Source: Myxococcales bacterium | GTDB lineage: Bacteria; Myxococcota_A; Polyangia; Polyangiales; DASUME01 | Assembly (NCBI GenBank): GCA_047601445.1 | Contig: JASGJH010000001.1 | Location: 2,080,001-2,144,000 of the forward strand | Reading direction: 5' to 3' | DNA length: 64,000 nucleotides | In this document: one piece after another, positions 6,380-24,597 of the stretch | How positions within the stretch are numbered: the stretch's first letter is position 1 | How the letters are laid out: every line of letters begins with the position of its first letter | The notes under the pieces: model-generated | Told to the model about the DNA's origin: nothing | The model's database searches: none | Seen by the model: only the letters and a program-made list of their open reading frames with translations | Position numbers and translations under genes: made by a program

Positions 6380-6634
6380 AGTTTTGCCTGCGCGCCCGCC
6401 CGAGCCTAGCCCACGGCCGAGACTCAGCCATGGCACGGCGAGGCGCGGGACACCAGGGGTGCGGGCCCCGATGAACGCTGATTCGTTGCGCCCCAGGCCG
6501 TACCGGGTCACAAACGCCCGGCACCGGCCGCCAGTTCTTTGACCCCCCCTGGGCCGCCAGTGATAACGGACAGACCAGGCGCACGCTGTTTTCCGGGGCC
6601 AGGCCCGGATCGGCGCCTGACATGGAGTGGCGGC

Positions 6635-7615
6635 GTGACGACCAAGCGAGTGGGCATCCTGATGGGCGGTGTGAGCTCGGAGCGCGAGGTCTCCTTGAGC
6701 ACGGGCGAAGCGATCTACAACGCGCTTCACGAGCGCGGCCACGACGTGGTGAAGGTGCTCGTAGACCGCGACATCGACAGCGCGCTACGCAGCACGCCGA
6801 TCGACGTGGCGTTCCTCGCGCTGCACGGGACGTACGGAGAGGACGGCTGCCTCCAGGGGCTGCTGGAGATGCGCGGCATTCCGTACACGGGCTCGAGCGT
6901 GATGGCGAGCGCGCTCGCAATGGACAAGTTCAAGTCCAAGCAGCTGTTCCGGCTCTACAACGTGCCGACCCCCCCCTACTACGTCGTGTCTGCCGACAAG
7001 CTCGGGCAGCTCGAAGAGATCCACGGCTCCTTCGGCTTTCCTGCGTTCGTCAAGCCACGCTGCCAGGGCTCGAGTGTCGGCGCCGGCAAGGCCACCGACT
7101 TTGCCGAGCTCAAGCGTCTGTGCGAGCAGGCGCTGATCTTCGACGAGTACGCGCTGGTGGAGCGCTTCGTGGCGGGCCGCGAGGTCTCGGTAGGCGTGCT
7201 GGATGGCAAGGCCCTGGGCGCCATCGAGATCGTGCCCAAGGGCGCGTTCTACGACTACAAGACCAAGTACACGGCGGGCAGCAGCGAATACCACTTCCCG
7301 GCGCGACTCTCGCCCACCCGTTACAAGAACGTGCTCAGCCTCGCCGAACGCGCCGCCGAGGCTCTCGACGTGCATGGAGCGGTCCGCGTGGACTTGCTGA
7401 TCACCGAGGGAGAGAACGAGTACGTGCTCGAGCTCAACACGCTGCCCGGCATGACGCCGACGTCGCTGCTACCCAAGATCGCCAAGGGCGCTGCCGGCAT
7501 GGACTTCGGGGTGCTGTGCGAGGAGATTCTCAAGCGAGCCCGCCTGCACCAGCGTCGTCCGGAGGACTCTCGGGCGGCCAGTCAGGCTGCGCAGAAGCAA
7601 GCGGCCGATCAGTGA
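6635..7615 (+). CDS. ddl: D-alanine--D-alanine ligase
   Basis: 'GGVSSEREVSL', 'LHGTYGEDG', 'GSSVG', 'FYDYKTKY', 'ELNTLPGMT..SL.PK'. Confidence 0.95.
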   Translation: MTTKRVGILMGGVSSEREVSLSTGEAIYNALHERGHDVVKVLVDRDIDSALRSTPIDVAFLALHGTYGEDGCLQGLLEMRGIPYTGSSVMASALAMDKFKSKQLFRLYNVPTPPYYVVSADKLGQLEEIHGSFGFPAFVKPRCQGSSVGAGKATDFAELKRLCEQALIFDEYALVERFVAGREVSVGVLDGKALGAIEIVPKGAFYDYKTKYTAGSSEYHFPARLSPTRYKNVLSLAERAAEALDVHGAVRVDLLITEGENEYVLELNTLPGMTPTSLLPKIAKGAAGMDFGVLCEEILKRARLHQRRPEDSRAASQAAQKQAADQ

Positions 7616-8892
7616 TGGGCGCTGTCTGGTTCGACGGCCTTGGGGTCTTCGGCCTGACCTAGCAAGCTCACCCGCCCAAAACCGGCGCGTCCCGTGACGC
7701 TCACGCGCAGCGCACCGTGCCGTCCGCAGAACGCCACCTCGGCCACCATCGCCGAGCTCTCGGCCTGGCCGTACAGGGAACCATCGAGTCCCTCGATGCG
7801 CAGGGTGGCGCGCGAGAGCCCGGGCTCCAGGAGCGCTCGCCAGCGCTCGCAGGCGCCGAGCGGAACCTTGTGCTCGAGCTCCACCACGGCGCCCTGCGAC
7901 AGGGGGAATTCCTGGGCGAACGTGGACTTGTCCGCGCCCTGGGTTGTTTGCTGGGCCGAGCTCGTCTGCTTGGCTGCCCGCCAGGCCTCGCGCGAGGGCG
8001 AAGGTTCGCCCAACCACATGGCGTGGGGCCCTCCGACGGCGGCCTGAGCCGCCCTGAAGCGGGCGATGCGCACCATGCCTTCGCCCGTGCTCGCGCTCAC
8101 CTCCAGCGCCAACTCACGCGCTTGGTCTGCACAGTACTGCAGCGACGCGAGGCGCTCCGCGGCGACCCCGTGACCGAGTTCGTTGTCGCCATCGAGCAAG
8201 CGCAGACTGACTCCGCCGAGTCCTGCGGCGCTCTCGGTGGCGACCGTGTAGCAATCGCCGGCGCGAGCCGAGATGGCCACACGCAACGGCTGCCCGGCGT
8301 TGAGCTGGGCCTCGACGCGCGGTCCTGCGTCCTCGAAGCCGCGCTTGTGCAGTGTCTTGGCGAGCTCGTTGAGGGCAGACTCGCGGGCGGGTTCGGAGAT
8401 GGTCAGCAAGTCATCGGTCTGGATGGCGGGTCTCACGAACTGCGCTGTCGCGTAGGCCCCGACGCCCTGGTAGGCGTGGAGCGAGTAGTAGCCGTCGACG
8501 CGCGTGTCCCCCGCGCACAGCATCAAGCTGGGCCGCGCGTCCGAGCCATCGTCTTCGAGCAGCGCCGTGCCATCCGAGCGATACAAGGAAGCGTCGAGGT
8601 CGATCACGCTCGGCGTGGCCACCGCCACGAAGCGGGCGCAGGTGTGAGGGTCGATGGTCACGGCCCGCGTGGCGCGGCCGTTGGTCGGGAGAAAGCCGCG
8701 ATCCTGGAAGGGAGCGCGCGTGAAGCCCTGATCCCGCAGCGCTCGGGCAGCGGCCTCGACGCGTAGTTCGAGCGCGTCTTCGGTGCCTTCGAGGGCAGTC
8801 ACGGGCGGCGGCGTCGTGCTCAGCACCGGGTTCGCACTCGCGCCCCCGCATCCCAGTCCCAGCACGCAGACGGCAAGCAAGCTCGCCTTCAT
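7609..8892 (-). CDS. Uncharacterised lipoprotein with ~3 tandem Cys-flanked beta-rich repeats
   Basis: Lipobox LGLGC. Repeated unit 'C..fva.....DLD.sL...DG..L..D.......C'. ATG overlaps the upstream stop. Confidence 0.65.
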   Translation of the reverse strand: MKASLLAVCVLGLGCGGASANPVLSTTPPPVTALEGTEDALELRVEAAARALRDQGFTRAPFQDRGFLPTNGRATRAVTIDPHTCARFVAVATPSVIDLDASLYRSDGTALLEDDGSDARPSLMLCAGDTRVDGYYSLHAYQGVGAYATAQFVRPAIQTDDLLTISEPARESALNELAKTLHKRGFEDAGPRVEAQLNAGQPLRVAISARAGDCYTVATESAAGLGGVSLRLLDGDNELGHGVAAERLASLQYCADQARELALEVSASTGEGMVRIARFRAAQAAVGGPHAMWLGEPSPSREAWRAAKQTSSAQQTTQGADKSTFAQEFPLSQGAVVELEHKVPLGACERWRALLEPGLSRATLRIEGLDGSLYGQAESSAMVAEVAFCGRHGALRVSVTGRAGFGRVSLLGQAEDPKAVEPDSAHH

Positions 8893-10241
8893 GGAGTCAC
8901 CATGCCCTGCTCGTGGGCCGGAGGTACGATGGGCGTCGTGCCTACCCACACGGAGACGGCGCCGTCTTGGCCGCGCGCGCGCAAGATGAGGCGAGCGCGC
9001 TGGTCGCGCGTCGCACAGGTGAACAAGAGGGGGACGTTGCGACGCCCTTCATTGCGCGCCACGAGCAGCCCCTCGGCGTCGATCAGTCTGACGTCCACAG
9101 CAGGTGCACCGCCCTCCGCAATACCAGCGAAGGCGTAGCAAAAGCCTGCCTTCAAGGACACCGGCCATGTGTGCGGCATGCTGGCCTCGACCCAGGCATC
9201 CCCAAGCGGCGCCAGCGTGAACCCGCGCGCCTTGGCCACCACGTTGGCCTCGGCCCAAGTCAGCGCGCGTGCGGCCCCCAGTGCCCGGATGGCCGGCGCG
9301 GAGGCCCCCTCGTGCTCGAACGCGCGCACGATGACCACGCCGCGCATGGGACGCGCCTGCACGCGCACGGAGTAGACCCCGGCGAGCTCGGTGCAGATGG
9401 GAAGCTCCACCCGGTCATCCTGGGCCGCCCGAGCGTCCCACTTGCGCTCGGAGGGGCTGGGCGCAGCGACCTCCACCAGCACGCCGCGCGAGACCGGCAC
9501 GTAGGCCACCACTCGATAGCAGCGCTGCGCCTCGAGGATGAGCCCCCCTTCCGCCACTCCAGCGCGCAGCTCGAGCGCGTTGGCCCGGCCTTGCGCGCGA
9601 TAGCCCAGCTCGCGCAGCGCGCTCTCGGCCTGCTCGAGCTTGAGGTCCAGCATCAGCTCGTCCGGAGCACCGCCCACGCCGCGCGTCTGCTCGGCACGGC
9701 CGCCGGCGCTGACGGCGAACTGGATTGCTTCGGGAAGTCGCTCCACGCCACGCGGACCGTCATCGACGCGCAGCAGCAGGAGCTCGCCGCGGCCAGCGTA
9801 GAGCGTGGCGCTGACGTACATCACGAGCCCGGCCGCGCCGCACACGCGCGCGTAGGCCAGCGGCTGTTGCGCAAGGTCTTCGGCGAGCGGTTGGCCCGCC
9901 CGCGTATGCACCGCTAGGTCCACGTCGCGCACCTCGCCCGTACCCAGCGCCAAGAACCCAACGCATTCGTCGCGCTCGAGGCGAACTTCGTGCACCGAGG
10001 CTTCGCTTTCGAACAGGAACGCGCGCGCAACCTCCGATACGCCCGAGGCCCCATGCTCGAGGAGGTGACGTTTCACGGCTGGCAACAGCGCGTCGAGGTG
10101 ATGCTCCGTTGTCGCGGGGCGCACCGCAGGAGCCGGTGAGGTTCGCTGACCTCCGCGTGTCTCGGCTGCGGCGGGACTCAGGGCCGCCCACCAGCACAAA
10201 CCGCCGAGCAACCAGGTCGAGAACCGCCGCGTTGATTTCAC
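8889..10241 (-). CDS. Uncharacterised secreted protein, paralogous repeat architecture to 7609-8892
   Basis: Signal peptide ending AAA. Units 'ECVGFLALG..EVRDVDLAV' and 'FCYAFAGIA..APAVDVRLIDAEG'. Confidence 0.65.
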   Translation of the reverse strand: MKSTRRFSTWLLGGLCWWAALSPAAAETRGGQRTSPAPAVRPATTEHHLDALLPAVKRHLLEHGASGVSEVARAFLFESEASVHEVRLERDECVGFLALGTGEVRDVDLAVHTRAGQPLAEDLAQQPLAYARVCGAAGLVMYVSATLYAGRGELLLLRVDDGPRGVERLPEAIQFAVSAGGRAEQTRGVGGAPDELMLDLKLEQAESALRELGYRAQGRANALELRAGVAEGGLILEAQRCYRVVAYVPVSRGVLVEVAAPSPSERKWDARAAQDDRVELPICTELAGVYSVRVQARPMRGVVIVRAFEHEGASAPAIRALGAARALTWAEANVVAKARGFTLAPLGDAWVEASMPHTWPVSLKAGFCYAFAGIAEGGAPAVDVRLIDAEGLLVARNEGRRNVPLLFTCATRDQRARLILRARGQDGAVSVWVGTTPIVPPAHEQGMVTP

Positions 10242-11176
10242 TTGGGCTTGGCTTGCGCGCCGTCGCTGGTCTTACTGGCCTGCGCGCGCGCCACGATGGA
10301 AGCGATGGCTTCGTTGGCGGCCTTGCGCACCGAGGGCGGCGACCCCGGCGCGGCATAGGGCCTGAGCTTGGGCGTGGCGTCGGACGTACCCACCTGGCCC
10401 AGCGCCGCGATCAGTCGCAGCCGTTGCGCTTGATCTTGGTTCGCGGCGGCCAGCAGCTTGAACAGCGCATCGCTCTTCTGGGGACTCTTGATGGCCGCGA
10501 TGGAATTGGTGACTTCCGCCTTCTCCTCGTCGTCGCGCTCCCCCTTGGACACGTACTGCACCAGCGGCTCGAGAGCGGCCGGATCGCCGATGCGCCCCAG
10601 GCTCAGCACCGCCGAGACGCGCACCGAGCGCACGGGATCGGAGAGCAGGCGAATCACGTCGTGGGTCACGCGAGGCTCACCGATCACGCCGAGCGCCTGC
10701 ACCGACCACTCTCGCACCGCGGGTTCCGAATCGGACAAGTGACGGACCAACGCATCGATGGCCGAGGGGTCCGGCAAGCGCCAGAGGGCCGCCGCCGCCA
10801 CCACACGCACGTCGGGACTCTTGTCTTCGAGGGCCGCAATCAAGTCGGGCACCGCGTCTCGCACGCCAAGCCGGCCCAGGGCTCTGCCCGCCGCAGCGCG
10901 CACCAGCGGCTCGGGATCGCTCTTGAGCAGTGGGCGCAGCACATTGGCGATCTCGTGCCGGACGCGATAGCCGCGACGCCCCATCTCGTCCGCCGCGGAC
11001 GCGCGATCGGCGGCGTTGGGAGACTTGAGGCGCTCGAGGGCAGAACGAAAGGCTTCTTCGTTCTGCCCGCCCGGGACCTGGGCTGGTGCCGGAGCCTGCG
11101 CCCGCGCCGAACCCGCACCAGCCAGCGTCGCCCCCAGCAAGCAGCCGCACAAAGACAAGCGAATTACCCAGCCCAT
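10238..11176 (-). CDS. Exported HEAT-repeat protein
   Basis: Repeats 'DPEPLVRAAAGRALGRLG', 'DKSPDVRVVAAAALWRL', 'DSEPAVREWSVQALGVIG'. Hydrophobic signal-like N-terminus. Alternative start 11290. Confidence 0.8.
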   Translation of the reverse strand: MGWVIRLSLCGCLLGATLAGAGSARAQAPAPAQVPGGQNEEAFRSALERLKSPNAADRASAADEMGRRGYRVRHEIANVLRPLLKSDPEPLVRAAAGRALGRLGVRDAVPDLIAALEDKSPDVRVVAAAALWRLPDPSAIDALVRHLSDSEPAVREWSVQALGVIGEPRVTHDVIRLLSDPVRSVRVSAVLSLGRIGDPAALEPLVQYVSKGERDDEEKAEVTNSIAAIKSPQKSDALFKLLAAANQDQAQRLRLIAALGQVGTSDATPKLRPYAAPGSPPSVRKAANEAIASIVARAQASKTSDGAQAKPK

Positions 11177-11286
11177 GCTCCCCGACCTCGTCGACCCATC
11201 TTCCGCTCGGCCTGGCGCGTCCTCGCGCCCACCGAGCCGGGTCGCACCCTCCCACGACGCGAGGCCGTCGTCATGATTCAGGGGAC

Positions 11287-13068
11287 TCATCGACCCGGCT
11301 TCGCGCGGGTGGAGGTCTCGCCCTTACCGGGAGCCGGCAAACGTGCGGTAGACAACACATCTCGCACCGAAGGTAGGGCACTGAGCGCGCGAACCACCGG
11401 TTCGGCGGCGTCCTGGATGCCGCCCAGGACGCGAGATAGCTCGGTCTCGAGCTCCTCGACCCGTTGCCGCACCTGCTGAAGCTCGGCCTCGGCCTCGGCC
11501 GTGACGATACCGAGTCGCCCTTTGAGCTGCGCGACCTGGAAGTTGAGGTCTTCCCGCTCCCGCTCGGCCGAATGCACGCGTGCACGCAGCGCGGGCAGCT
11601 GCGCCTCCGCCTCGAGCCAAAGCGCCGCCTGTCCTCCGATTTGGCGCAGGCGCTCGGCCAGGGCAGTGTTCATCGCCAGACGTCCGACGCGCGGCTGCGC
11701 CAGCTCGTACACCGCGGAGAACAGTGGCTGAGCCAGCTCGTTCAAGCGCGACTCGGCTTGCGCATAGCCCTCGGCGGCGTCGGCGATACGGCGTGCCACG
11801 CGCGACTCATCTTGCCCCAGTTCATCGACCGCGCGGCCCATCCGCAGACGCGAGGCACGCACGTGATCCTCGTGCTCCTTGGCCCGCAGCAAGTTGTCCC
11901 CGAGTTCCTTGCGCATGGCGCGCGCGCGGTTCACCAACTGTTGCAGCTCGGTCATGCTGGCCCGCACCTCGTTCGGCGGGCTGCCGCTCGGATAGGCGCG
12001 GGGCAACATGTCCTGATACAGGTCCACGCGCGCAGCCCAGCTCTCCTCGGCGGCGTCGAGCCACGGCTGCGTGGCCTGCGGCTCGATCATCGGAACGGAC
12101 ATCATCCCGGAGCGTCGCGGTGGACGCGAAGGGCGGCTGCCTTGCAGCTCGTCCAGGATGGAACTCAGCTCGTCGGCCAAGTGGTACGCGTCGGAGAAGC
12201 GCTCCCCCGGGTGCTTGGCGAGCATGCGCAGCACGAGCGCGTCGATCTTGCCTCGCAGCGGCAGATCCGGGCGCAGCGACGACGGTGGACTCGGCGGCAC
12301 CTGCAGGTGCTTGAGCACCACCTCCGGGCTCGGCCCCTCGAACGGCAAACTGCCCGTCAGCATCTCGTAGAGCACGCAGCCGAGGGCGTACTGGTCCGCC
12401 TGACCCGTCAACGGCTCGCCTCGCGCCTGCTCCGGCGCCAGGTACTCGGGGGTGCCGAAGACCTTCCCGGTGGCGGTGAGCCGGTGTTCGCCGACCACCT
12501 TTGCCAAACCGAAATCCAGCAGCTTCACGAAGTCCGCGCCGCGCCGCTGCTGTACGAAGACGTTGTCGGGCTTGACGTCGCGGTGGATCACGTCGAGTTC
12601 GTGGGCGCGTGCCAGCGCCGTGGCCAACTGGTGGGCAATGGTCAGCGCTCGAACCGGCTCCAGCGGGCCCGCTCCGATGACCTTGCCGAGCGGCTCGCCC
12701 TCCAGGTACTCCATCACCAGGAAGACCAGACCATCGGAGGTCTCGCCAAAGTCCGTGATGTCGATGATGTGCTCGTGATCGATGCGGTTGGCGGCTCTGG
12801 CTTCGCGCAAGAAACGCTCGCGTGCAGCCGGATCACGGGCATAGCGGGGTGACAGGAACTTGAGCGCGACATCGCGGCCCACCAGCTGATGGCGACCTCG
12901 ATAGACCGCCCCCATGCCGCCCGTGCCGATTAACTCGGACACCACGTAGCGCCCGCCGATCGTGCGACCGACAAGGGGATCGGGCAGCGGCTCGAGCTGC
13001 GTGCCGTCGAACGGACAAACCCGTGCCTCAGATGTGAATCGTGATTGGCAGACCGGGCAGTGCTGCAA
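11287..13068 (-). CDS. Hanks-type Ser/Thr protein kinase with N-terminal Zn-ribbon and C-terminal coiled coil
   Basis: CPVC...CPFDG, GTGGMG, VALK, HRDVKPDN, DFG, GTPEYLAPE. No transmembrane segment seen. Start uncertain (TTG 13068; ORF extends to 13131). Confidence 0.92.
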   Translation of the reverse strand: MQHCPVCQSRFTSEARVCPFDGTQLEPLPDPLVGRTIGGRYVVSELIGTGGMGAVYRGRHQLVGRDVALKFLSPRYARDPAARERFLREARAANRIDHEHIIDITDFGETSDGLVFLVMEYLEGEPLGKVIGAGPLEPVRALTIAHQLATALARAHELDVIHRDVKPDNVFVQQRRGADFVKLLDFGLAKVVGEHRLTATGKVFGTPEYLAPEQARGEPLTGQADQYALGCVLYEMLTGSLPFEGPSPEVVLKHLQVPPSPPSSLRPDLPLRGKIDALVLRMLAKHPGERFSDAYHLADELSSILDELQGSRPSRPPRRSGMMSVPMIEPQATQPWLDAAEESWAARVDLYQDMLPRAYPSGSPPNEVRASMTELQQLVNRARAMRKELGDNLLRAKEHEDHVRASRLRMGRAVDELGQDESRVARRIADAAEGYAQAESRLNELAQPLFSAVYELAQPRVGRLAMNTALAERLRQIGGQAALWLEAEAQLPALRARVHSAEREREDLNFQVAQLKGRLGIVTAEAEAELQQVRQRVEELETELSRVLGGIQDAAEPVVRALSALPSVRDVLSTARLPAPGKGETSTRAKPGR

Positions 13069-13142
13069 CGGATCCCCCTCAAACACGTCGAGCGAGCGAA
13101 GACGATAGCGCTCATGGGAATGCCCGAGCAACTGAGCAGGAG

Positions 13143-13174
13143 ATTCTTGACTTTTCCGATGGGTGAACTAGGGT
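13143..13174 (+). promoter_or_regulatory. Putative sigma70 promoter and Rrf2-type operator half-site for the sulfur operon
   Basis: TTGACT (13147-13152), 16 bp, TAGGGT (13169-13174). ATTCTTGACT resembles IscR/Rrf2-type half-sites. Confidence 0.4.
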
Positions 13175-13197
13175 TGTCCGGTTTTCGTGAGGTCTGC

Positions 13198-13656
13198 GTG
13201 AAGCTCTCCAGCCGGGGTCGCTACAGCGTCCGTGCCATGTTCGATATCGCGTTCCACGGCGAAGGCGCCGCGGCGCAGATCAAGGACATCGCCGAGCGCC
13301 AGGGCATCCCGCCGCGGTTCCTGGAGCAGATCTTCCAGGACCTGAGGCGAGCAGGCCTGGTCTCGAGCAAGCGCGGCCCCCGCGGCGGCTACCACCTCGC
13401 CCGAGCTGCCCGTGAGATTTCGGTGGGCGAAATCGTGCGCGCTGTGGAAGGGCCCCTGAGCCTGTGCGCCGGGGAGGAAGACGCAGCAGATAGCGGCGAC
13501 GTCGCGAGCATCGGGGTCACCGAGAACATGTTCCGCGACCTATCCGCGCGCGTGGCCGCCTGTTTCGACCAGGTCACGCTCGAGGACCTCTCGGACCAGG
13601 CCCAGCGCCAAGGTGTTCGCCGGGGCAATCCCGGCGGCTATGTCTACGTCATCTAG
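13198..13656 (+). CDS. cymR: Rrf2-family transcriptional regulator, CymR-like
   Basis: 'KLSSRGRYSVRAM', 'FLEQIFQDLRRAGLVSSKRGPRGGYHLA'. Lacks the IscR three-Cys cluster. C-terminal 'GGYVYVI'. Directly upstream of cysK. Confidence 0.75.
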   Translation: MKLSSRGRYSVRAMFDIAFHGEGAAAQIKDIAERQGIPPRFLEQIFQDLRRAGLVSSKRGPRGGYHLARAAREISVGEIVRAVEGPLSLCAGEEDAADSGDVASIGVTENMFRDLSARVAACFDQVTLEDLSDQAQRQGVRRGNPGGYVYVI

Positions 13657-13671
13657 TAGAGTTCGAACCCC

Positions 13672-14598
13672 ATGACAGCTCCGGTCGTCGACAACGTCCT
13701 CTCTCTCATCGGCAACACGCCCCTGGTGCGCCTGCGACGGGTCGTGCCGGAAGGCGCCGCGGCGGTGTGGGCGAAGTGTGAGCAGCTGAATCCCGGCGGA
13801 TCGGTCAAAGACCGCATCGCGCTTGCGATGATCGAAGCGGCGGAGCGCGACGGCAGACTCAAGCCCGGGGACACGGTGGTGGAGCCCACCAGCGGCAACA
13901 CCGGCATCGGTCTGGCCCTGGTGTGCGCGCGCAAGGGCTACAAGCTCGTGCTGACCATGCCCGAAAGCATGTCGCTCGAGCGCCGCGCGCTGCTGGAGGC
14001 CTATGGGGTCGAGATCGTGCTCACGGCGGCCGAGCGCGTGATGGAAGGGGCCATCGAGGCCGCCCAGGAAATCCTGGCCGAGCGCAAGGCCTTCATGCCG
14101 AGTCAGTTCGACAACCCCGAGAATCCGAACGCCCATCGCCGGCAAACGGCCCAGGAGATTTTGGCGGCGCTCGAGGGCGAACCGCTGCACGCGCTGGTGG
14201 CCGCGGTGGGCACGGGTGGAACCGTAAGCGGCGTGGGCGAGGAGCTCAAGGCCAAGCACCCGAGCCTCAAGGTGATCGCTGTGGAGCCCGAGGCGAGCCC
14301 CGTGCTGGCGGGCGGCGAGCCAGGTCCCACCAAGATTCAGGGCATCGGCGCAGGCTTCGTCCCGGGCAACTTCCATCACCAGGTGGTGGACGAGATCCGC
14401 CAGGTGGCCGATCGAGATGCCTACGAGATGAAGATCCGGCTAGCCAAGGAAGAAGGCCTGCTGGTGGGTATCAGCGCCGGCGCCAACGTGCGCGTGGCCG
14501 CGCAGCTGGCCAAGGAGTTGGGCCCCGGAAAAACGGTGGTCACGGTGCTGTGCGACACCGGTGAGCGCTACTTCAGCCTGGACGAGTACTTCAAGTGA
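13672..14598 (+). CDS. cysK: Cysteine synthase A (O-acetylserine sulfhydrylase)
   Basis: 'NPGGSVKDRIA' (PLP Lys), 'EPTSGNTG', 'GTGGT', 'KIQGIGAGF', 'DTGERY'. Confidence 0.92.
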   Translation: MTAPVVDNVLSLIGNTPLVRLRRVVPEGAAAVWAKCEQLNPGGSVKDRIALAMIEAAERDGRLKPGDTVVEPTSGNTGIGLALVCARKGYKLVLTMPESMSLERRALLEAYGVEIVLTAAERVMEGAIEAAQEILAERKAFMPSQFDNPENPNAHRRQTAQEILAALEGEPLHALVAAVGTGGTVSGVGEELKAKHPSLKVIAVEPEASPVLAGGEPGPTKIQGIGAGFVPGNFHHQVVDEIRQVADRDAYEMKIRLAKEEGLLVGISAGANVRVAAQLAKELGPGKTVVTVLCDTGERYFSLDEYFK

Positions 14599-15344
14599 AC
14601 GCAACGGCACAGACAGTCACGAGCGCCGCGGATGGACGCGGCGTGCTGGTGATCGGAGTCGGCGGACTCTCGTCACCCGCGCTGTCCGTGCTGGTGGAAA
14701 GCGGCGTGCGACGTCTGACGCTGATCGACGCGGACCGCGTGGACGAGACCAACTTGCAGCGCCAAACCCTGTTCTCCGAGGCCGACGTTGGCCGCCCCAA
14801 GGTGGAAGCCGCCGCGGAACGCCTGCGCTCGCTGAGCCCGGAGCCGCTGCAGCTGGAGCTCATCGAGGGCCGTTTTGCCCCCGAAAACGCCCGGGACGTC
14901 GTGGCGGGACATCGCTTGGTGCTCGAAGGAGCCGACAACTACGCCACCAAGTTCCTGGCGGCGGACACCGCCAAGCTCGAAGGACTATCGGTGGTACAGG
15001 CCGGCGCCGTACGACTCTCGGGGTGGGCCCTGGCGGCCCTGCCCGATGCAGGTCCCTGTCTGCGCTGCGTGTTCGAAGACATCCCACGCGGACAGCCCGA
15101 GACCTGCGCGGTCGCGGGCGTGCTCGGTCCGGTGGTGGGCGTGCTCGGTGCGCTCGAAGCGGCCCTCGCGGTTCAGCTCCTGCTCGGTCAGACTCGCGCC
15201 GCCGGCGTGCTCTGGAGCTACGATGCGCCGGCCGGGCGCCTGCGCAGGCGTCGTGTGTCCCCCAGGGCAGGCTGCGCGCTGTGCAGCGGCGAAATCACCA
15301 CGCTCGACCTCGAGCGCTACGACAGCAACCACTGCGCTGCCTAG
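14595..15344 (+). CDS. MoeB/ThiF-family (E1-like) adenylyltransferase lacking the N-terminal RYxR helix
   Basis: 'VLVIGVGGLS', 'DADRVDETNLQRQ', 'GRPKVEAA', 'GADN', Zn pairs CLRC/CALC, 'TCAVAGVLGP'. No rhodanese domain. Confidence 0.88.
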   Translation: MNATAQTVTSAADGRGVLVIGVGGLSSPALSVLVESGVRRLTLIDADRVDETNLQRQTLFSEADVGRPKVEAAAERLRSLSPEPLQLELIEGRFAPENARDVVAGHRLVLEGADNYATKFLAADTAKLEGLSVVQAGAVRLSGWALAALPDAGPCLRCVFEDIPRGQPETCAVAGVLGPVVGVLGALEAALAVQLLLGQTRAAGVLWSYDAPAGRLRRRRVSPRAGCALCSGEITTLDLERYDSNHCAA

Positions 15345-15376
15345 CGGCGCAAACACCTTCTGCAAAGGAGCCATCG

Positions 15377-15652
15377 ATGCCTATTACCGTTCGAATCCCA
15401 ACCCCCCTGCGCACCCTCACCGGCGGAGCCGACGAAGTCACCATCGAAGGCGGCAACGTCGGAGAGGTCATCGAGAACCTCGAAAAAAAGCACCCGGGCA
15501 TCAAGGAGCGTCTCTGCGACGAAAAGGGCAACGTACGCCGCTTCGTCAACGTCTACGCCAACGAAGAGGACATCCGCTTCCTCGACAACCTGGCGACGAC
15601 TCTCAAAGAGGGCGACTCGGTGAGCATCGTCCCCGCCATCGCGGGCGGCTGA
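15377..15652 (+). CDS. Ubiquitin-like sulfur carrier (CysO/MoaD/ThiS family)
   Basis: 91 aa, 'VRIPTPLR', 'RRFVNVYANEEDIRFL', C-terminal 'PAIAGG'. AAGGAG RBS. Confidence 0.92.
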   Translation: MPITVRIPTPLRTLTGGADEVTIEGGNVGEVIENLEKKHPGIKERLCDEKGNVRRFVNVYANEEDIRFLDNLATTLKEGDSVSIVPAIAGG

Positions 15653-15666
15653 AGGAAGAACTCGTC

Positions 15667-16041
15667 GTGCCGCTCAACGCTCGCCAGCGCACTCGCTATG
15701 CACGCCACCTGCTCCTGCCCGAAGTGGGCCTTGTGGGGCAGGAGCGTCTGGTGGAAGCGCGTTTGGGGCTGGGCGAGAGCGCCGATCCGCGCGCTGCCAA
15801 GGTGGCGCAGCTGTATCTCGAGCGGGCCGGCGTGAGCGTGGAGAGCGACGCTGCGCTGCGCGTTCGAGTGGCCGACACCGACTCGGTCCGCCGCCTGGCG
15901 GGAAGCCCCGCGCTCGAGCCAGCGGCAGCGGCACTAGCGGGCGCGCTCGGCGCCGTGGAAGCCATCAAAGAAGTGTTGCAGTTGGGAGCCAAAGGCGACG
16001 TGTCGCTGGCTCCGCTGTCTCTGGTACCGGAGGACGTGTGA
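15667..16041 (+). CDS. Mini MoeB-like protein (N-terminal RYxR helix plus dimerisation helices, no nucleotide-binding motif)
   Basis: GTG 15667. 'RYARHLLLPEVGLVGQERL', 'AQLYLERAGV', 'AGALGAVEAIKEVL'. Stop overlaps the next GTG. Confidence 0.7.
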   Translation: MPLNARQRTRYARHLLLPEVGLVGQERLVEARLGLGESADPRAAKVAQLYLERAGVSVESDAALRVRVADTDSVRRLAGSPALEPAAAALAGALGAVEAIKEVLQLGAKGDVSLAPLSLVPEDV

Positions 16042-16964
16042 GCCGCTTCAAGCGCATCGATTCGATCGTCGAGGCCGTGGGCAACACGCCGTTGGTGCGC
16101 CTGCGCAGCATCGAGCGCGACGCCCCCGGCGTGAAGATCTACCTCAAGCTCGAGTACACCAACCCGGGTGGCTCGGTGAAAGACCGCCCTGCCCTGCAGA
16201 TGCTCACCGATGCGATCAAGGACGGGCGCTTCACCAGGGACAAGATCCTCGTGGACGCCACCAGCGGCAACACGGGCGTCGCGCTCTCTTTATTCGGCGC
16301 TTGCCTCGGCTACCGCATCGCGCTGGTGATGCCTTCCAACGTCTCGCAAGCCCGCAAGAACATCACCCAGGCCTTCGGCACCCAGCTCATCTACAGCGAT
16401 CCCATGGAGGGCTCCGACGGCGCCATCCGCCTGGTGCGCAAGCTGGTGGCCGAGGAACCCGACAAGTACTTCTACTCGGACCAGTACTCGAACCCGAGCA
16501 ACCCCAGGGCACATTACCTCGGGACCGGTCGGGAGATCCTCGAGCAGGTGGGCGACGAGATCACCCACTTCGTGACCGGACTCGGCACCAGCGGCACCAT
16601 GATGGGGACCACCCGTCGTCTGCGGGAGCACTCGCGGAAGATCACCTGCATCGCCGCCGAGCCCGCGGAGGCGCTGCATGGCCTTGAGGGGCTCAAGCAC
16701 ATGCCGAGCTCCATCGTGCCGAACATTTACGACCCGAACCTCGCCGACGAGCTCTTGCCCGTGCCCACCGAGGGCGGCTGGGACATGGCGGACCGCCTCG
16801 CGCGCGAGGAAGGACTGCACGTGGGGCACTCGACCGGCGCCAACGTGTGGGCCGCGCTCACCGTGGCCAAGCGAGTCAAAGAAGGCTGCGTGGTGACCAT
16901 CGCCTGCGACCGCGGCGACCGCTACTTCGCTCCGATGCGCTGGGAGAAGCAGTATGAGTGGTGA
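16038..16964 (+). CDS. PLP-dependent cysteine synthase, CysM-like (probably sulfur-carrier dependent)
   Basis: 'NPGGSVKDRPA', 'DATSGNTG', 'GLGTSGT', 'GLEGLKHM'. Lies between the CysO-like and Mec-like genes. Confidence 0.85.
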   Translation: MSRFKRIDSIVEAVGNTPLVRLRSIERDAPGVKIYLKLEYTNPGGSVKDRPALQMLTDAIKDGRFTRDKILVDATSGNTGVALSLFGACLGYRIALVMPSNVSQARKNITQAFGTQLIYSDPMEGSDGAIRLVRKLVAEEPDKYFYSDQYSNPSNPRAHYLGTGREILEQVGDEITHFVTGLGTSGTMMGTTRRLREHSRKITCIAAEPAEALHGLEGLKHMPSSIVPNIYDPNLADELLPVPTEGGWDMADRLAREEGLHVGHSTGANVWAALTVAKRVKEGCVVTIACDRGDRYFAPMRWEKQYEW

Positions 16965-17451
16965 TCGTCCCTGGATCGCGGGTGACCTGGAGATCTCGCG
17001 CGAAGTGCTGGCTGAAATCGAGGCCCACGCGCTCGCGACCTATCCGAGCGAGTGTTGCGGCTTCGTGAGCGGGCCCCAGAGCCAGGCCAAGCTGCTCGAC
17101 GCCTACGTGCGCGAAGAGAACGAGGCCGACAAATATCACAAGCTCGACCCGGAGACGTTCCCGCGGACGTCACGGACGTACTTCAAGATCAACGAGCTCA
17201 GGGCCGCCAAGGCCTTCGACGCCGGCGACAAGAACGGCCGCCCGATCAAGGTCATCTATCATTCGCACTGTGACGCCGGCGCTTACTTCTCGCAGGAAGA
17301 CGCCGCCACGTTCGCCTCCGACAAACAGCTGATGTGGCCCTGCGCCTTCATCGTGGTGAGCGTGCAGAACGGCCAGCTCGCCGAGCGAAAGCTGTGGATC
17401 CACGTGCCCGGTACCAACGATTTCCGCGAATCCTCCCTGACCGTCCGATGA
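16954..17451 (+). CDS. JAMM/Mov34 metallopeptidase (Mec-like, CysO-cysteine peptidase)
   Basis: 'YPSECCG' and JAMM motif 'YHSHCDAGAYFSQED'. Confidence 0.88.
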   Translation: MSGDRPWIAGDLEISREVLAEIEAHALATYPSECCGFVSGPQSQAKLLDAYVREENEADKYHKLDPETFPRTSRTYFKINELRAAKAFDAGDKNGRPIKVIYHSHCDAGAYFSQEDAATFASDKQLMWPCAFIVVSVQNGQLAERKLWIHVPGTNDFRESSLTVR

Positions 17452-19205
17452 ACGACATCGAAGAGCTTAGTTGCGATCTCCTGATCATCGGCGGCGGTGC
17501 GGCCGGCTGCGTCGCCGCCGTGGAGGCGCGTGAGAAGGCCCCGGACCTCGACGTCCTCTTGGTCGAGAAGGCCCACATCTACCGCAGTGGCTGTCTGGCC
17601 GCCGGCATCAGCGCCATCAACGCGTACCTGACGCCCGGAGAGACCGCCGAATCGTTCCTGCGCTACACCATCCGCGACACCCACGGCATCGTGCGCGACG
17701 ATCTGGTGCTGAGCATGGCGCGTGAGCTCAACGCGCAGTCCCACCGCGTGGAGAAGTGGGGCCTGCCCATCCCGCGCGACGAGAATGGCCACCCGCTCAA
17801 GCGCGGCCGTGCCTCGATCAAGATCCTGGGTGAGCGCATCAAGCCCATCATCGGCAAGGCCACCGAGGCCAGCGGCGCGCGCATCATGAACCGCGTGAAC
17901 ATCACCGGCCTGGCCACGCATCGTGGCCGCGTGATCGGCGCCTTCGGATTCAACATCCGCACCGGGAAGTTCATCTCCATCCGCGCCAAGGCGACCCTGC
18001 TCTGCACGGGGGGCACCGCGGGCCTGTATCGCCCCAACAACCCGGGCATGGCCTCTCACCGCATGTGGTACTCGCCCTTCAACACGGGCGCCGGCCTCGC
18101 GATGGGCATCCGCAGCGGCGCGGAGATGACGAGCTTCGAGTTCCGCTTCATCCCTCTGCGCATCAAGGACGCAATCGCTCCGACCGGCGAGATCGCACAG
18201 TGGCTCGGCGCCAAGCAGATCAACGCGCGCGGCGAGGCCTACCTGGACAAGTACTACCAGCACCTCGGCGGCTCTCGCATGACCACCCAGGATCGCCTCT
18301 ACGCGACGCTGCAAGAGAAGATGGCCGGTCGTGGACCTTGCTATCTGGACATCAGCAACGTGGACCCGCGCAAGCTGGAGGGCACCACGCGCTCGTACCT
18401 CTCGATGGCACCGCCGGCTGCGATGCTGCTGCAGGACGAGATGTACTACGGGCGGGGCGGCGGCTCGATGGCGCCGGTGGAAATCACGGGCAGCGAACCG
18501 CACGTCGTCGGCGGCCACGGTCTCTCGGGCTACTGGGTCGACGTGTCGCGCAAGACGACCCTGCCTGGTCTGTGGGCGGCGGGTGACGTGGCCGGTGGCT
18601 CGCCCAAGAAGTACGCGTCGGGAGCCTGGGCCGAAGGCGTGCTGGCGATTCGCGACATGATCGACGACGTGCGCACGCGGAAGTCTGTGGAGCTCGACGA
18701 GGAGCAGATCCTCAAGGAGCGTGACCGCGTGTTCGCGCCGTTCGAGGACAAGCCCGGCACTTCACCGCGTGAGCTGGAGGAGCGCCTGCAAAAGGTGATG
18801 GACGAGTACGCCGGCGGCATCAGCCAGATGTACATGTACTCGGAGGGCGAGCTGAAAATCGCCGAGATTCACCTCAAGCGTCTCGAGCAGGAGTTCAACG
18901 CCATCACCGCGGGTAGCTTGCACGAGCTGTTGCATGCTCACGAGTTGATGGATCGCGTGACCGTGGCGCAGACGCTGGTAGCTCACATGCTGCATCGCCA
19001 GGAGACACGCTGGCACTGCTATCAGGAGCGTGTGGACTATCCGCAGCGCGACGACGCTCGTTGGAGCGTATTCGTAAACTCGGTTCGCAAGGGCGACCGT
19101 ATCGAGATGGTGGAACGGCCGGTAGAGCGCGCGAATGTCGAAGTCGTGCTGCCAGAGCTCGCCGATGGCGCCATCATTCGTCACAGCACGAGTTCTTCGG
19201 AGTAG
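17448..19205 (+). CDS. aprA: Adenylylsulfate (APS/PAPS) reductase alpha subunit-like flavoprotein
   Basis: FAD motif 'IIGGGAAG', 'RSGCLAAGISAINAY', 'WYSPFNTG.G.AM....GAEMT.FE.RF', 'EPHVVGGH', 'LQKVMDEYAGG', 'ETRW'. Followed by an AprB-like gene. Confidence 0.8.
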   Translation: MNDIEELSCDLLIIGGGAAGCVAAVEAREKAPDLDVLLVEKAHIYRSGCLAAGISAINAYLTPGETAESFLRYTIRDTHGIVRDDLVLSMARELNAQSHRVEKWGLPIPRDENGHPLKRGRASIKILGERIKPIIGKATEASGARIMNRVNITGLATHRGRVIGAFGFNIRTGKFISIRAKATLLCTGGTAGLYRPNNPGMASHRMWYSPFNTGAGLAMGIRSGAEMTSFEFRFIPLRIKDAIAPTGEIAQWLGAKQINARGEAYLDKYYQHLGGSRMTTQDRLYATLQEKMAGRGPCYLDISNVDPRKLEGTTRSYLSMAPPAAMLLQDEMYYGRGGGSMAPVEITGSEPHVVGGHGLSGYWVDVSRKTTLPGLWAAGDVAGGSPKKYASGAWAEGVLAIRDMIDDVRTRKSVELDEEQILKERDRVFAPFEDKPGTSPRELEERLQKVMDEYAGGISQMYMYSEGELKIAEIHLKRLEQEFNAITAGSLHELLHAHELMDRVTVAQTLVAHMLHRQETRWHCYQERVDYPQRDDARWSVFVNSVRKGDRIEMVERPVERANVEVVLPELADGAIIRHSTSSSE

Positions 19206-19244
19206 TGGTTCGCGCGCCGCGTCGCGTGAACGCAGGAGGAGCAG

Positions 19245-19586
19245 ATGGGTATCTTCGTAGACGAGAACGTGTGCAACGGCTGCGGCATCGCCGAGGAGCC
19301 CATGTGCGTGCGCGACTGTCCCGGCGACCTGATGATCCTCAAAGAGAATCGTAAGGCCATCATCCGGGACAACCGCGACTGCTGGGACTGCGCCGCGTGC
19401 GTGAAAGTGTGTCCGACTCAGGCCATCGCCATGCAGCTGCCGAGCTCGGTGATCGTGCGAGGCGTCAAGCTCAAGGGCCGCGCCATCAAGCACAAGACGA
19501 CTTGGAAGCTCAAGCTACGCGACGGCACGGAGCGCGCTTACGAGACGCCCAGCACGGGCAACGCTCCGTTCAACCCGAGCCTGTAG
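19245..19586 (+). CDS. aprB: APS reductase beta subunit-like 2x[4Fe-4S] ferredoxin
   Basis: 'CNGC......CVRDCPGDLM', 'CWDCAACVKVCP', C-terminal 'W.....DG'. AGGAG RBS. Confidence 0.8.
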   Translation: MGIFVDENVCNGCGIAEEPMCVRDCPGDLMILKENRKAIIRDNRDCWDCAACVKVCPTQAIAMQLPSSVIVRGVKLKGRAIKHKTTWKLKLRDGTERAYETPSTGNAPFNPSL

Positions 19587-19603: not shown

Positions 19604-19631
19604 CGGGCAGGCCACACACGGGGCCTGCCCG
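19604..19631. terminator. GC-rich hairpin between convergent aprB and rplS
   Basis: Perfect 10 bp stem CGGGCAGGCC/GGCCTGCCCG with 8 nt loop. No U-tract. Confidence 0.5.
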
Positions 19632-19655: not shown

Positions 19656-19689
19656 AAAGCAAAACGGCGAACCCACTGGGTCCGCCGTT
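19656..19689 (-). terminator. Rho-independent terminator of the rpsP-rplS operon
   Basis: Minus-strand stem AACGGCGGACCC...GGGTTCGCCGTT followed by TTGCTTT. Confidence 0.7.
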
Positions 19690-19726
19690 CCTGCACACGT
19701 ATCGAGCCCGCTCGGGGCTCGCTCGC

Positions 19727-20113
19727 TCAGCCCTCGGAGGCCGCCGCAGCAGACACGTGCGAGCGGTTGCTCTCGCGGAGGCGGGCCTTCTTGCCCTCGA
19801 GACCGCGCATGTAGTAGAGGCGCGAGCGGCGAACGCGGCCGCGGAAGCCGATTTCGATCTTCTCGATGCGAGGCGAGTTGATGGGGAAGATACGCTCCAC
19901 GCCAACGCCGTAGGACACCTTGCGCACCGCGAAGGTGGCGCCGACGCTGCCCTTGGACTTGCGAATGACGGTGCCCTGGAAGACCTGAACGCGGTCCTTC
20001 TCGCCTTCGCTGATGCGGAAGTGGATCTTCACCGTGTCACCGACGCGGAAATCCGGGAGGGTACGAACCTGTGCCTGCTCGATGGCGGCAATCTGAGGAA
20101 TGGTGCTGGCCAT
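19727..20113 (-). CDS. rplS: 50S ribosomal protein L19
   Basis: '[10 protein letters not shown]', 'RVQVFQG', '[15 protein letters not shown]', '[10 protein letters not shown]'. Confidence 0.97.
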
Positions 20114-20305
20114 GGCCTGGTTTCTCCGTCCGACACACGCGCGAGTCGCGGCGTGAGTGATCAAGGTGACGCGCGCGGGTCTACGGCGCGAGCGACATTA
20201 GGGCCGCCTTCTTGACATGCCCGATGGGGGGCGTCAATCGCCCGCCGGAACTTGGCGAGTTTCCAGGCTCTTGAGCGGTTCCAAGAGCCAAAACTCCGGC
20301 GTTTC

Positions 20306-22959: not shown

Positions 22960-24597
22960 ATGCGCTATGGTCCCCAATCTGTGCAGCGGTTCAGCCTACC
23001 CCATCTCTGGTTGCTCCTCTTTGTTTCGTCCTGCGCCTGGATGGGCCGCTGTGACGGCAAGACCCAGCCCAGCAAGCTGGCCCCGCCGCGCCCGCCCGCC
23101 GATCTGCGGCTGGTGGTGCTGACCGATCCCAAGGGCTACCTCGAGCCTTGCGGCTGCCAGATGCGCCCCCTCGGCGGCATCGACAAGCTGGCCACCGAGC
23201 TCGAGCAAGCGCGCCGGGGCAAGGCGCCCGTGGTGGCGGTGGCCGCGGGAGATCTCACGTTCGGCACCGTGCTGCGAGCGGAGGACGCCGCGCGTTCCCA
23301 GACGCAGGAGGACTGGCGCGCGGAGACCTTGGTCGACGTGTGGAGTGGGCTGGGTTTGGCCGCTGCCACCCCGGGGCCGGCCGATTTCGGGCAAAAGCCG
23401 GAGACGCTCGCCGGACTCGTGACGCGCAGCAAGTTCCCGTGGCTGGCCGAGAACCTGACCGGACCGGGCACCGATCAGCTCGGCCGCGCGCGCGTGATCG
23501 ACGCGGGAAGCATCAAGGTCGGTCTATTCGGGCTCGTGGCTCCCTCGCCGGCGCTTCACCTACCGAGCGAAGTCACGCTCGACCCGAAGCTCGGCGAGGT
23601 CGCGCGCAAGACCAGCGACGCCCTACGCGCCCAGGGCGCACGCGTGGTCGTGGCCCTGCTCACGGGGGACCGCAAGAGCGCGCGCGAAGTCGCGGAAGCG
23701 GGTGCCGACGTGGTGGTACTCGGCGGCGTCGATCAAGAGAAGCCGCTCGCGCCCGTGCTGGTGGGAGACAGGGGCATCGTGATCAATGCCGGCTACCAGG
23801 GCCAGCGCATGGTCACGCTCGACCTCGAGCTGGACGCCCAGGGCGCCTGGCACGATGCCAGCGAGTGGACCCTGCGCGAGAGCCGCAAGGATCTGGAGCG
23901 CGACGCGTCGGAGCTGGAGCAGAAGATCGCGGCTTGGTCGAAGGATACGCACGTGAAGGCCTCCGATCTCGACGCGCAACGCGGGCGCTTGGCGAGCCTG
24001 CAGAACGAGCTCAAAGCGCGCAGCGTGCCGAGCTACAGCGGGCGCTGGTTCGCAGCCGACGTGACCGAGCTCTCGCCCGACGTGAAGGACAACGCGGAGA
24101 TCCGTAAGCAGATCGACGAGTACAATCGGCGCATCAACGAGCACAACAAGAAGGTCTTCGCGGACGTCAAACCTGTGCCGGCGCCCGAGGGCAGCGCTCA
24201 CTATGCGGGGTCCGAGTCGTGCCAGAGCTGCCATGCCGAAGCCTACGCGTGGTGGAAGAACACCAAGCACGGACGCGCCTACGCGACGCTCGAGAACGTT
24301 CACAAGGAGTTCAACACCACCTGCGTGGGCTGTCATGTCACGGGCTACAACAAGCCCGGCGGGAGCACGGTTGCCTACGTGGACGGACTCAAAGACGTGG
24401 GTTGTGAGAACTGCCATGGCCCTGGCAGCCTGCACAATGCGGCGCCCGACAAACCGGGGCTTGTCGCGCGAGACGCTCCTGAAGCAGTATGCGTGGGTTG
24501 TCACAATCACGAGCACAGCGACCGCTTCGTCTACGAGGCCTTCAAGCCCTTGCTGGTCGTGCCCGGTCATGGCTTGCCCAAGGCCAAGGCGAACTGA
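22960..24597 (+). CDS. Exported protein: degenerate 5'-nucleotidase/metallophosphoesterase-like domain plus tetraheme cytochrome c domain
   Basis: Lipobox-like VSSC, 'GYLEPCGC...LGG', 'AGD', 'FPWLAENL'. Four CXXCH motifs (CQSCH, CVGCH, CENCH, CVGCH). Confidence 0.8.
   Translation: MRYGPQSVQRFSLPHLWLLLFVSSCAWMGRCDGKTQPSKLAPPRPPADLRLVVLTDPKGYLEPCGCQMRPLGGIDKLATELEQARRGKAPVVAVAAGDLTFGTVLRAEDAARSQTQEDWRAETLVDVWSGLGLAAATPGPADFGQKPETLAGLVTRSKFPWLAENLTGPGTDQLGRARVIDAGSIKVGLFGLVAPSPALHLPSEVTLDPKLGEVARKTSDALRAQGARVVVALLTGDRKSAREVAEAGADVVVLGGVDQEKPLAPVLVGDRGIVINAGYQGQRMVTLDLELDAQGAWHDASEWTLRESRKDLERDASELEQKIAAWSKDTHVKASDLDAQRGRLASLQNELKARSVPSYSGRWFAADVTELSPDVKDNAEIRKQIDEYNRRINEHNKKVFADVKPVPAPEGSAHYAGSESCQSCHAEAYAWWKNTKHGRAYATLENVHKEFNTTCVGCHVTGYNKPGGSTVAYVDGLKDVGCENCHGPGSLHNAAPDKPGLVARDAPEAVCVGCHNHEHSDRFVYEAFKPLLVVPGHGLPKAKAN

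Follow-up and report, generated by a model that had tools for sequence, protein, structure and literature searches.

What would genes from three sulfur systems, each familiar from other organisms, be doing side by side in a myxobacterial genome? The question is raised by a 64,000-nucleotide stretch of DNA from a Myxococcales bacterium of the order Polyangiales (contig JASGJH010000001.1, positions 2,080,001 to 2,144,000; hereafter the window), in which a run of nine genes encodes an Rrf2-family regulator, the cysteine synthase CysK, an E1 adenylyltransferase, a CysO-type sulfur carrier, a small protein that we call E1N, a CysM-type cysteine synthase, a Mec-type protease and the two subunits of an AprAB-like reductase. 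A preliminary description of the sequence had read them as a CymR/CysK sensor, a MoeZ-CysO-CysM-Mec thiocarboxylate route and a reductase of a mainly dissimilatory type, possibly channelling sulfur from adenylylsulfate (APS) or 3'-phosphoadenylylsulfate (PAPS) onto a protein thiocarboxylate.

We consider it fairly probable that these genes form a single operon that regulates itself and serves both the assimilatory reduction of sulfur and the making of cysteine, with the E1-E1N pair and a CymR-like regulator among its parts. Judging from gene content, its function is most likely the synthesis of cysteine from sulfate, with a protected thiocarboxylate branch and under CysK-coupled repression.

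A conserved nine-gene operon

According to the open reading frame (ORF) listing and direct reading, the nine genes lie on the plus strand and span positions 13198 to 19586. The junctions measure, in order, +15, −4, +32, +14, −4, −11, −4 and +39 nt, and mec and aprA share an ATGA overlap. The close packing first reported is thus confirmed, the largest gap being 39 bp. Eight of the nine proteins have Pfam or NCBIfam matches, the exception being E1N, which belongs to no Pfam family.

The closest relatives in public genomes are Polyangiales metagenome-assembled genomes. Ten Polyangiales genome loci share the gene order, and so do 5 other genomes from this taxonomic order and 5 metagenome contigs, with AprA identities of 69–92 %. 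A tblastn search with the nine proteins recovered the same order, as far as the contigs reach, in the ten Polyangiales contigs (L012–L021; AprA 71–92 % identical), and the 15 complete or near-complete loci of the order all have it, as do metagenome loci L046 and L049. When 401 genomes of the phylum were surveyed, six including the source genome exceeded the cut-off of the reductase alpha-subunit model NF005331, all of them from the same taxonomic order; twelve other genomes scored 370–429 bits. Among the five genomes other than that of the window, one (G400) has the full form and four small ones have the arrangement Rrf2-CysK-CysO-CysM-Mec-AprA-AprB without E1 and E1N. No Rrf2 match was found in L040, a locus of this E1-less form. 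The carrier has CysM and Mec as direct neighbours in each of the loci.

Such a nine-gene cluster is, on this comparative evidence, far beyond what chance would produce. The proposal that one operon joins all three modules is borne out by the synteny survey, in that the Rrf2/CysK pair, CysO-CysM-Mec and the AprAB-type reductase are conserved together and no complete locus examined has aprAB apart from the other modules.

An assimilatory AprAB-like reductase

The alpha subunit scores 738.3 bits against NF005331 (cut-off 557), and among solved structures it is closest to the PAPS reductase of Methanothermococcus thermolithotrophicus (MtPAPSR; PDB 8a8o_A), with which it aligns over 562 residues at E 1.3e-187. 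The match to A. fulgidus AprA is far weaker (E 4e-90). The beta subunit has 8 Cys in its translation, enough for two [4Fe-4S] clusters. A dissimilatory AprAB was considered and rejected on the family models, with TIGR02061 at 354.7 bits against a cut-off of 641.75 and TIGR02060 at 67.9 against 135.65, and also on the lack of a Sat match in the genome and on gene context. The expectation of a mainly dissimilatory type did not survive this test of TIGR02061 and NF005331; by its sequence, the operon enzyme is an assimilatory reductase of the MtPAPSR type and not a member of the dissimilatory family. Besides the length of the alignment, it shares with MtPAPSR a short 8-Cys beta subunit and an assimilatory context. 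It differs in its gene linkage, to cysK, cysO, cysM and mec where the Mt gene is linked to ATPS, APSK and PAPP, and in its host, which is bacterial and presumably aerobic.

MtPAPSR is reported to prefer PAPS over APS about 16-fold, with Lys120, Arg121 and Ser122 proposed as the determinants, while in APS reductases a conserved Gln145 clashes with the 3'-phosphate of PAPS (Jespersen et al. 2023, PMC10322725). In HMMER alignments the three Mt residues correspond to R121, A122 and S123 of the window subunit, and the position of Gln145 in the dissimilatory enzymes is taken by Ser123, a Ser as in MtPAPSR. The substrate may be PAPS or APS. Several points weigh against a PAPS reductase in this setting. 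The PAPS-determining residues are conserved in type at two of three positions, Mt Arg121 being Ala here, and with the kinase domain fused to CysN degenerate (see below), APS is a possible substrate. Polyangiales are presumably aerobic, which raises the question of how an MtPAPSR-type enzyme would serve them. MtPAPSR itself was handled anaerobically (PMC10322725).

An alignment-driven scan of metagenome contigs yielded 80 loci, 5 of them Polyangiales-like, and local hidden Markov models built from members of the loci were run on all 80. In 60 of the 75 non-Polyangiales loci cysD/cysN or sat lies beside aprAB. At least two of ThiS, ThiF and JAB are present in 21 of the 75, and in 18 of these 21 there are in addition MetY, TusA and a small NIR_SIR protein. 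Neither feature showed in 16 loci, most of which are short contigs. One of three loci examined by Pfam, all with similar orders, reads MetY-smallSIR-TusA-Trx-ThiS-ThiF (full length)-JAB-TrxR-like-AprA-AprB-CysD-CysN (L084, positions 3199–13598), and such a MetY-to-CysN cluster, with a small NIR_SIR/ferredoxin gene after MetY and a divergent Rrf2 gene, occurs on gut and fermentation metagenome contigs (L084, L068, L063, L085 and others). From its gene content it looks like a complete sulfate-to-homocysteine thiocarboxylate set around an AprAB-like reductase. A further locus (L056, 8998–16021) has the order AprA-AprB-Sat-PHO4-type transporter-TusA-cysteine synthase-JAB-ThiF, with no ThiS gene detected.

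One could suppose that the enzyme works outside sulfate assimilation, running oxidatively or on another substrate, for instance in sulfite detoxification or on organosulfonates. Dissimilatory AprAB is reversible (PMC10322725). We regard this as extremely improbable: the reverse reaction of MtPAPSR was reported not to be measurable (PMC10322725), a second (P)APS reductase is missing from the genome despite CysDN, APS kinase and Sir, and the 60 loci mentioned above place the homologues beside cysDN or sat.

The sulfate pathway in the rest of the genome

The source genome is a single contig of 9.5 Mb, estimated to be 98.7 % complete, and profile searches covered all of it. CysH was not found genome-wide, the sole PAPS_reduct match being CysD, and Sat (PF01747) was likewise without a match genome-wide; Dsr and Qmo were not searched for. 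CysD and CysN are encoded at about 0.60 Mb, a separate full APS kinase (230 bits) at 0.674 Mb (674,089–674,538), and a sulfite reductase of 554 aa at 8.91 Mb in a DUF2849-Sir-DUF934 operon that has a divergent LysR-type regulator and no cysH beside it. Because CysH and Sat are unmatched while CysD/CysN, APS kinase and Sir are present, the operon AprAB is the only candidate (P)APS reductase of the genome. The suggested search for cysDN or sat, cysC, cysH and sir therefore gave CysD/CysN, APS kinase and Sir, and neither CysH nor Sat. The sulfur supply of the carrier, called unexplained from the window, is accounted for, since CysD/CysN, APS kinase and sulfite reductase are encoded elsewhere in the genome.

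Other genes bear on the same pathway. CysN (~600.1–602.0 kb) carries a kinase-like tail that is degenerate, with the P-loop GSGKV and a match to PF01583 that is broken into two parts (33 and 30 bits). The full APS kinase makes up one half of a separate 371-aa ORF. Three serine-acetyltransferase-like genes score 160–175 bits, under the cysE cut-off of 210.65. Two further ThiS-family genes are found elsewhere in the genome, and a rhodanese-ThiF protein of 392 aa is encoded 77 kb from the operon.

What the sequence shows is the identities of the genes, their conserved order and the set of pathway genes present in the genome. From these we derive the following scheme, in which the substrate (PAPS or APS), the electron donor, the source of sulfide for the carrier and the binding of E1 to E1N and of Rrf2 to CysK are proposals. 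CysD/CysN and the separate APS kinase, encoded elsewhere, would make APS and PAPS, which the flavo-iron-sulfur enzyme of the operon would reduce to sulfite, and the distant DUF2849-Sir-DUF934 sulfite reductase would yield sulfide. Sulfide may then enter cysteine directly, through CysK and O-acetylserine. In the alternative branch E1 would adenylate CysO at its C-terminal Gly-Gly and sulfide would presumably give the thiocarboxylate, which CysM would add to an activated serine, perhaps O-acetylserine or O-phosphoserine, before Mec releases cysteine. One absence counts against this scheme: TusA/SirA (PF01206) has no match genome-wide, although a SirA/TusA gene is said to be always present in class 4e of the related operons described by Iyer, Burroughs and Aravind in 2006 (PMC1779556).

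The channelling first suggested is a different idea, in which the AprAB-like enzyme would pass (P)APS sulfur directly to the CysO system, for instance as protein-bound sulfite or persulfide, without free sulfite and sulfide. The tight coupling of aprAB to the carrier genes, down to the ATGA overlap of mec and aprA, speaks for it, as does a co-conservation that reaches the 21 non-Polyangiales loci with ThiS, ThiF or JAB beside aprAB. We nevertheless find it highly unlikely, and unsupported as a claim about the operon, since no six-electron reductase from S(IV) to S(−II) is encoded in it while a complete Sir operon exists elsewhere in the genome. Moreover, the non-Polyangiales loci hold a small NIR_SIR protein and TusA between the modules, which points to free or carried sulfide, and MtPAPSR is reported to release sulfite as its product (PMC10322725).

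The carrier, CysM and Mec

The carrier has a beta-grasp/ThiS fold, ends in AIAGG, and finds its best solved relative in M. tuberculosis CysO (3dwg_C, E 3.4e-24). The synthase next to it matches E. coli CysM (2bht; E 4.5e-69, 236 bits) and M. tuberculosis CysM (3dki; E 6.7e-60, 206 bits), and its TIGR01138 score of 342 bits is under the cut-off of 394, a result that detracts from the assignment. CysM is the likely acceptor of the CysO thiocarboxylate, as far as these comparisons go. JAMM proteases follow the pattern HxH-x7-S-x2-D, and in the Mec translation the motif E...HSH-x7-S-x2-D is intact (HSHCDAGAYFSQED). We find the identities of CysO, CysM and Mec credible on such similarity, and to this extent the MoeZ-CysO-CysM-Mec route stands; the E1 is not MoeZ, being truncated and without rhodanese.

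In M. tuberculosis, Mec-CysO-CysM with MoeZ were reportedly described by Burns et al. in 2005. The likeness lies in a CysO orthologue with a GG end and in the adjacent CysM-type pyridoxal-phosphate enzyme and JAMM protease. In contrast to that system, the E1 gene here is part of the operon, its product is rhodanese-less and N-terminally truncated and is accompanied by the extra E1N, and the operon also holds CysK, the Rrf2 regulator and the MtPAPSR-type reductase.

It is conceivable that CysO, E1 and Mec make a product other than cysteine, such as a thio-cofactor, a thiosugar or a siderophore, with CysK and AprAB only supplying sulfur. The second match of CysO in the PDB is 4n6e_B, a "ThiS/MoaD family protein" that we take to be part of a 2-thiosugar pathway, and protein thiocarboxylates are reported to serve several natural products (PMC6225789). 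Such a product is very unlikely here, as CysM and Mec adjoin the carrier throughout, no biosynthetic genes are nearby (the flanks being a Ser/Thr kinase, rplS and trmD), and two other ThiS-family genes exist for molybdenum cofactor and thiamine synthesis. Those genes, together with the rhodanese-ThiF protein, can serve the two cofactor pathways. A cofactor role for CysO itself, which would have undone the earlier reading, was judged unlikely for the same reasons.

A truncated E1 and its companion E1N

The operon E1 lacks a rhodanese domain and covers ThiF profile positions 23–236 only. Its alignment begins at residue 30 of E. coli ThiF and residue 32 of MoeB, and the N-terminal RYxRQ helix is absent. 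This truncation is kept in all nine aligned orthologues, which start a few residues before GxGGLG, directly after cysK. R56, K69, D114, the zinc CxxC pairs C155/C158 and C227/C230, and C171 are invariant, the first three being presumably the equivalents of the MoeB adenylation residues Arg73, Lys86 and Asp130. The enzyme does not resemble MoeZ as had been supposed, given the missing rhodanese domain, the truncated N-terminus and a rhodanese-ThiF found instead 77 kb away. The arginine-finger helix (ThiF Arg11, MoeB Arg14) that is missing from E1 is present in E1N.

In NCBIfam, E1N is matched weakly by the N-terminal ends of MoeB and ThiF (best E 3e-8). Its 87 homologues (92–160 aa) are all without a Pfam domain. 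An alignment of 38 sequences has 17 invariant columns, among them R13 (38/38) within RYARH, and further invariant features are G24-Q25, a YL.RAG motif and an AVE(A)IK helix; there is no GxGxxG loop. Aligned by hhalign to residues 1–60 of the full-length ThiF from L084, the E1N profile gives a probability of 96 % (E 2.9e-9). The AlphaFold2 model has a mean predicted local distance difference test (pLDDT) score of 88 and resembles ThiF clusters in the ESM Atlas with a template modelling (TM) score of 0.78, while Foldseek gave no hit at E <= 0.001, its ten best rows being Uba4, ThiF and MoeB chains at E 0.4–1.1. E1N clusters in the ESM Atlas have 59–277 members and, where the phylum is known, are mostly from Myxococcota. 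The GC content by codon position is 0.85/0.49/0.77, compared with 0.50/0.86/0.78 for the antisense ORF. Profiles and model together suggest that E1N has a degenerate mini-ThiF fold in which the arginine-finger helix has been retained.

The two proteins occur together. Of the 12 loci with the truncated E1, which are that of the window and 11 more, every one has E1N (12 of 12). E1N is also present in L019, whose contig is cut at cysO, and is absent as a stand-alone protein from the four complete operons without E1 (4/4), where the profile has no match but the N-terminus of the full-length ThiF encoded in the same genome. Some orthologues carry lineage-specific low-complexity inserts, with SV repeats in the linker of one (L020, 5507–6046) and, at the C-terminal end of another, ARE/EQSID units in several copies (L016, 6051–6563).

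ThiF Arg11 and MoeB Arg14 are described as arginine fingers that reach in from the neighbouring subunit, and yeast Tcd1 donates its finger to Tcd2, a heteromeric precedent (PMC13139853). On sequence grounds, the chances that E1 and E1N form a heteromer are about even; in such a complex the E1 core would work with a pared-down, inactive ThiF-fold protein bearing the finger helix. A stronger version, somewhat less probable in our view, is an obligate bacterial heterodimeric E1 in which the nucleotide-blind, 124-residue E1N gives finger and dimer interface to the one active subunit. It would resemble the eukaryotic pairs APPBP1-UBA3, SAE1-UBA2 and yeast Tcd1-Tcd2, where a ThiF-fold subunit without the nucleotide loop would likewise donate the finger to an active partner, and would differ in the small size of E1N, in being bacterial and in belonging to a sulfur-carrier pathway, the complex itself being putative here. 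If this is true, the heterodimeric E1 would parallel the eukaryotic inactive/active domain pairs in minimal form, having arisen independently of them, and would be specific to the sulfur-carrier operons of Myxococcota.

In the alternative view the truncated E1 acts as a homodimer that needs no partner, and E1N is either a duplicate in decay or a small protein of other origin. Two observations lean this way and so tell against the heteromer. Catalysis by ThiF and MoeB is reported not to require the arginine finger, and E. coli TcdA has none (PMC13139853), so that the truncated E1 might work alone; and hhalign shows no similarity between the E1N profile and the truncated E1. The E1N linkers are also variable, with low-complexity inserts. 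We hold this explanation to be unlikely, although deserving of attention. Wherever a locus covers the position and either has the truncated E1 or belongs to its clade, E1N is an open and conserved frame (13 of 13), its 87 homologues retain 17 invariant columns including the finger Arg, its codon-position GC is typical of coding sequence, the model is confidently folded, and the co-occurrence with the truncated E1 is strict.

The Rrf2 regulator and CysK

Of the NCBIfam models, IscR (112 bits) and CymR (see below) match the regulator best, both under their cut-offs. The protein has two Cys, the Fe-S triad being absent; two orthologues have no Cys at all. It ends in GGYVYVI, and a terminal Ile is found in 15 of 15 loci, within a Y-V-Y-[VA]-I or similar tail. 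In S. aureus the C-terminal tail of CymR, GYMFYI, is reported to insert into the active site of CysK, the pentapeptide having a dissociation constant (KD) of 25 nM, and its terminal Ile is shared with CysE (bioRxiv 10.1101/2024.09.19.614015). By this analogy the Rrf2 protein most likely acts like CymR, and its Y-V-Y-V-I tail would occupy the active site of CysK, giving O-acetylserine control over repression.

The system resembles the CymR-CysK pairs of Bacillus and Staphylococcus in having an Rrf2 protein without the Fe-S triad, beside cysK, with an aromatic/hydrophobic pentapeptide ending in Ile. It differs in phylum, in that CysK binding is a prediction here, and in its score against the CymR model (NF047409), which at 93 bits is far under the cut-off of 195 and counts against this reading. 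Because the family model failed, we do not class the protein as a CymR equivalog. The CymR/CysK sensor is supported in the form of a CymR-like Rrf2 protein with the Ile tail, paired with CysK.

Control elements and neighbouring genes

Upstream of the Rrf2 gene (Table 1) lies a TTGACT hexamer, a 16-nt spacer containing CCGAT, and TAGGGT. This TTGAC..CCGAT..TAG element is common to nine aligned upstream regions, in which the TTCTTG.C and CCGAT columns are invariant. From its conservation it reads as a putative promoter, possibly including an operator. A consensus promoter scan found no sigma-70 site and did not flag the element.

The hairpin reported at the end of the operon is confirmed: the 116-nt tail that contains it folds at −62.9 kcal/mol (z −3.4), and none of 200 shuffles was as stable. 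It has no T-run and is absent from the output of the terminator scan. A second strong hairpin at 19662–19690 has a T-run on the minus strand only and is likely the intrinsic terminator of rplS (19730–20164, minus strand). The operon and the convergent rplS unit end at most 60 bp apart.

The flanks are unrelated to the operon: rplS and trmD converge on it from downstream, and the gene of a Ser/Thr kinase diverges from it upstream. This kinase gene (11290–13131, minus strand) lies about 66 bp from the Rrf2 gene, and the coding sequence of its N-terminus (the ACGATAGCGC block) is kept beside the operon in seven of nine aligned loci, which hints at a conserved pairing of the two. Elsewhere in the window, a 545-aa ORF at 22960–24594 (plus strand) has a C-terminal cytochrome c554/c-prime-like domain (E 4e-15) and is unrelated to the operon.

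Table 1. Positions, strand and supporting matches of the operon genes and control elements in the window
Feature	Position	Strand	Evidence
Promoter-like element	13147–13174	+	Conserved upstream alignment
Rrf2-family regulator	13198–13656	+	Pfam Rrf2, E 2.9e-37
CysK, O-acetylserine sulfhydrylase A	13672–14598	+	TIGR01139, 407 bits (cut-off 351)
ThiF/MoeB-type E1 adenylyltransferase, 249 aa	14595–15344	+	Pfam ThiF, profile positions 23–236 only
CysO-type sulfur carrier, 91 aa	15377–15652	+	Pfam ThiS, E 1.4e-16; 3dwg_C
E1N, 124 aa	15667–16041	+	GTG start 8 nt after AGGAAG; no Pfam family
CysM-type cysteine synthase	16038–16964	+	TIGR01138, 342 bits; 2bht, 3dki
Mec-type JAMM metalloprotease	16954–17451	+	Pfam Prok-JAB, E 1e-16
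AprA-like alpha subunit (FAD), MtPAPSR-type (P)APS reductase	17448–19205	+	NF005331; 8a8o_A
AprB-like beta subunit, short ferredoxin, 113 aa	19245–19586	+	8a8o_C, E 1.1e-19
GC-rich hairpin at operon end	19604–19631	+	Perfect 10-bp stem

Precedents and implications

How new is this arrangement? A thiocarboxylate route to methionine through HcyS, HcyF, HcyD and MetY was reportedly described in W. succinogenes by Krishnamoorthy and Begley in 2011, and there bisulfide from Sir is said to attack the carrier adenylate. In 2006 Iyer, Burroughs and Aravind described operons that combine ThiS, JAB and rhodanese-less E1 genes with PAPS reductase, ATP sulfurylase and sulfite reductase, and also a class 4c in which ThiS/MoaD, JAB and E1 occur with cysteine synthase, the E1 being fused to rhodanese (PMC1779556). 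The window operon shares with classes 4c and 4e and with the Wolinella Hcy pathway a ThiS-like carrier, a JAB protease and a rhodanese-less E1 clustered with sulfate-reduction genes. It departs from them in its acceptor, which is a cysteine synthase and not MetY, in the genome-wide absence of SirA/TusA, in a sulfite reductase encoded outside the cluster, and in the AprAB-type reductase, the apparently split E1 and the addition of CysK and Rrf2.

The preliminary description knew of no account of the combination in myxobacteria. A search of titles and abstracts found no description of CysO in myxobacteria, the results being on natural products, antibiotics and unrelated organisms, and a search of the same kind for literature since 2023 gave no work on bacterial MtPAPSR-like enzymes. 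Operons of this kind have been known since 2006 (PMC1779556). What is new here is an AprAB-type enzyme as the sole candidate (P)APS reductase of a myxobacterium, a CymR-like tail outside Firmicutes and a possible two-protein E1.

These results would give the AprAB-like assimilatory PAPS reductase a bacterial setting, in which it appears to replace CysH altogether. Because the homologues commonly adjoin cysDN or sat, and often ThiS, ThiF and JAB, metagenome genes annotated "adenylylsulfate reductase" are probably often assimilatory, which matters wherever aprA serves as a marker of dissimilatory sulfur cycling. The regulatory device of a CymR-type tail inserted into CysK would extend outside Firmicutes. 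Finally, E1 and E1N may offer a simple two-protein system for asking what the inactive half of an E1 contributes.

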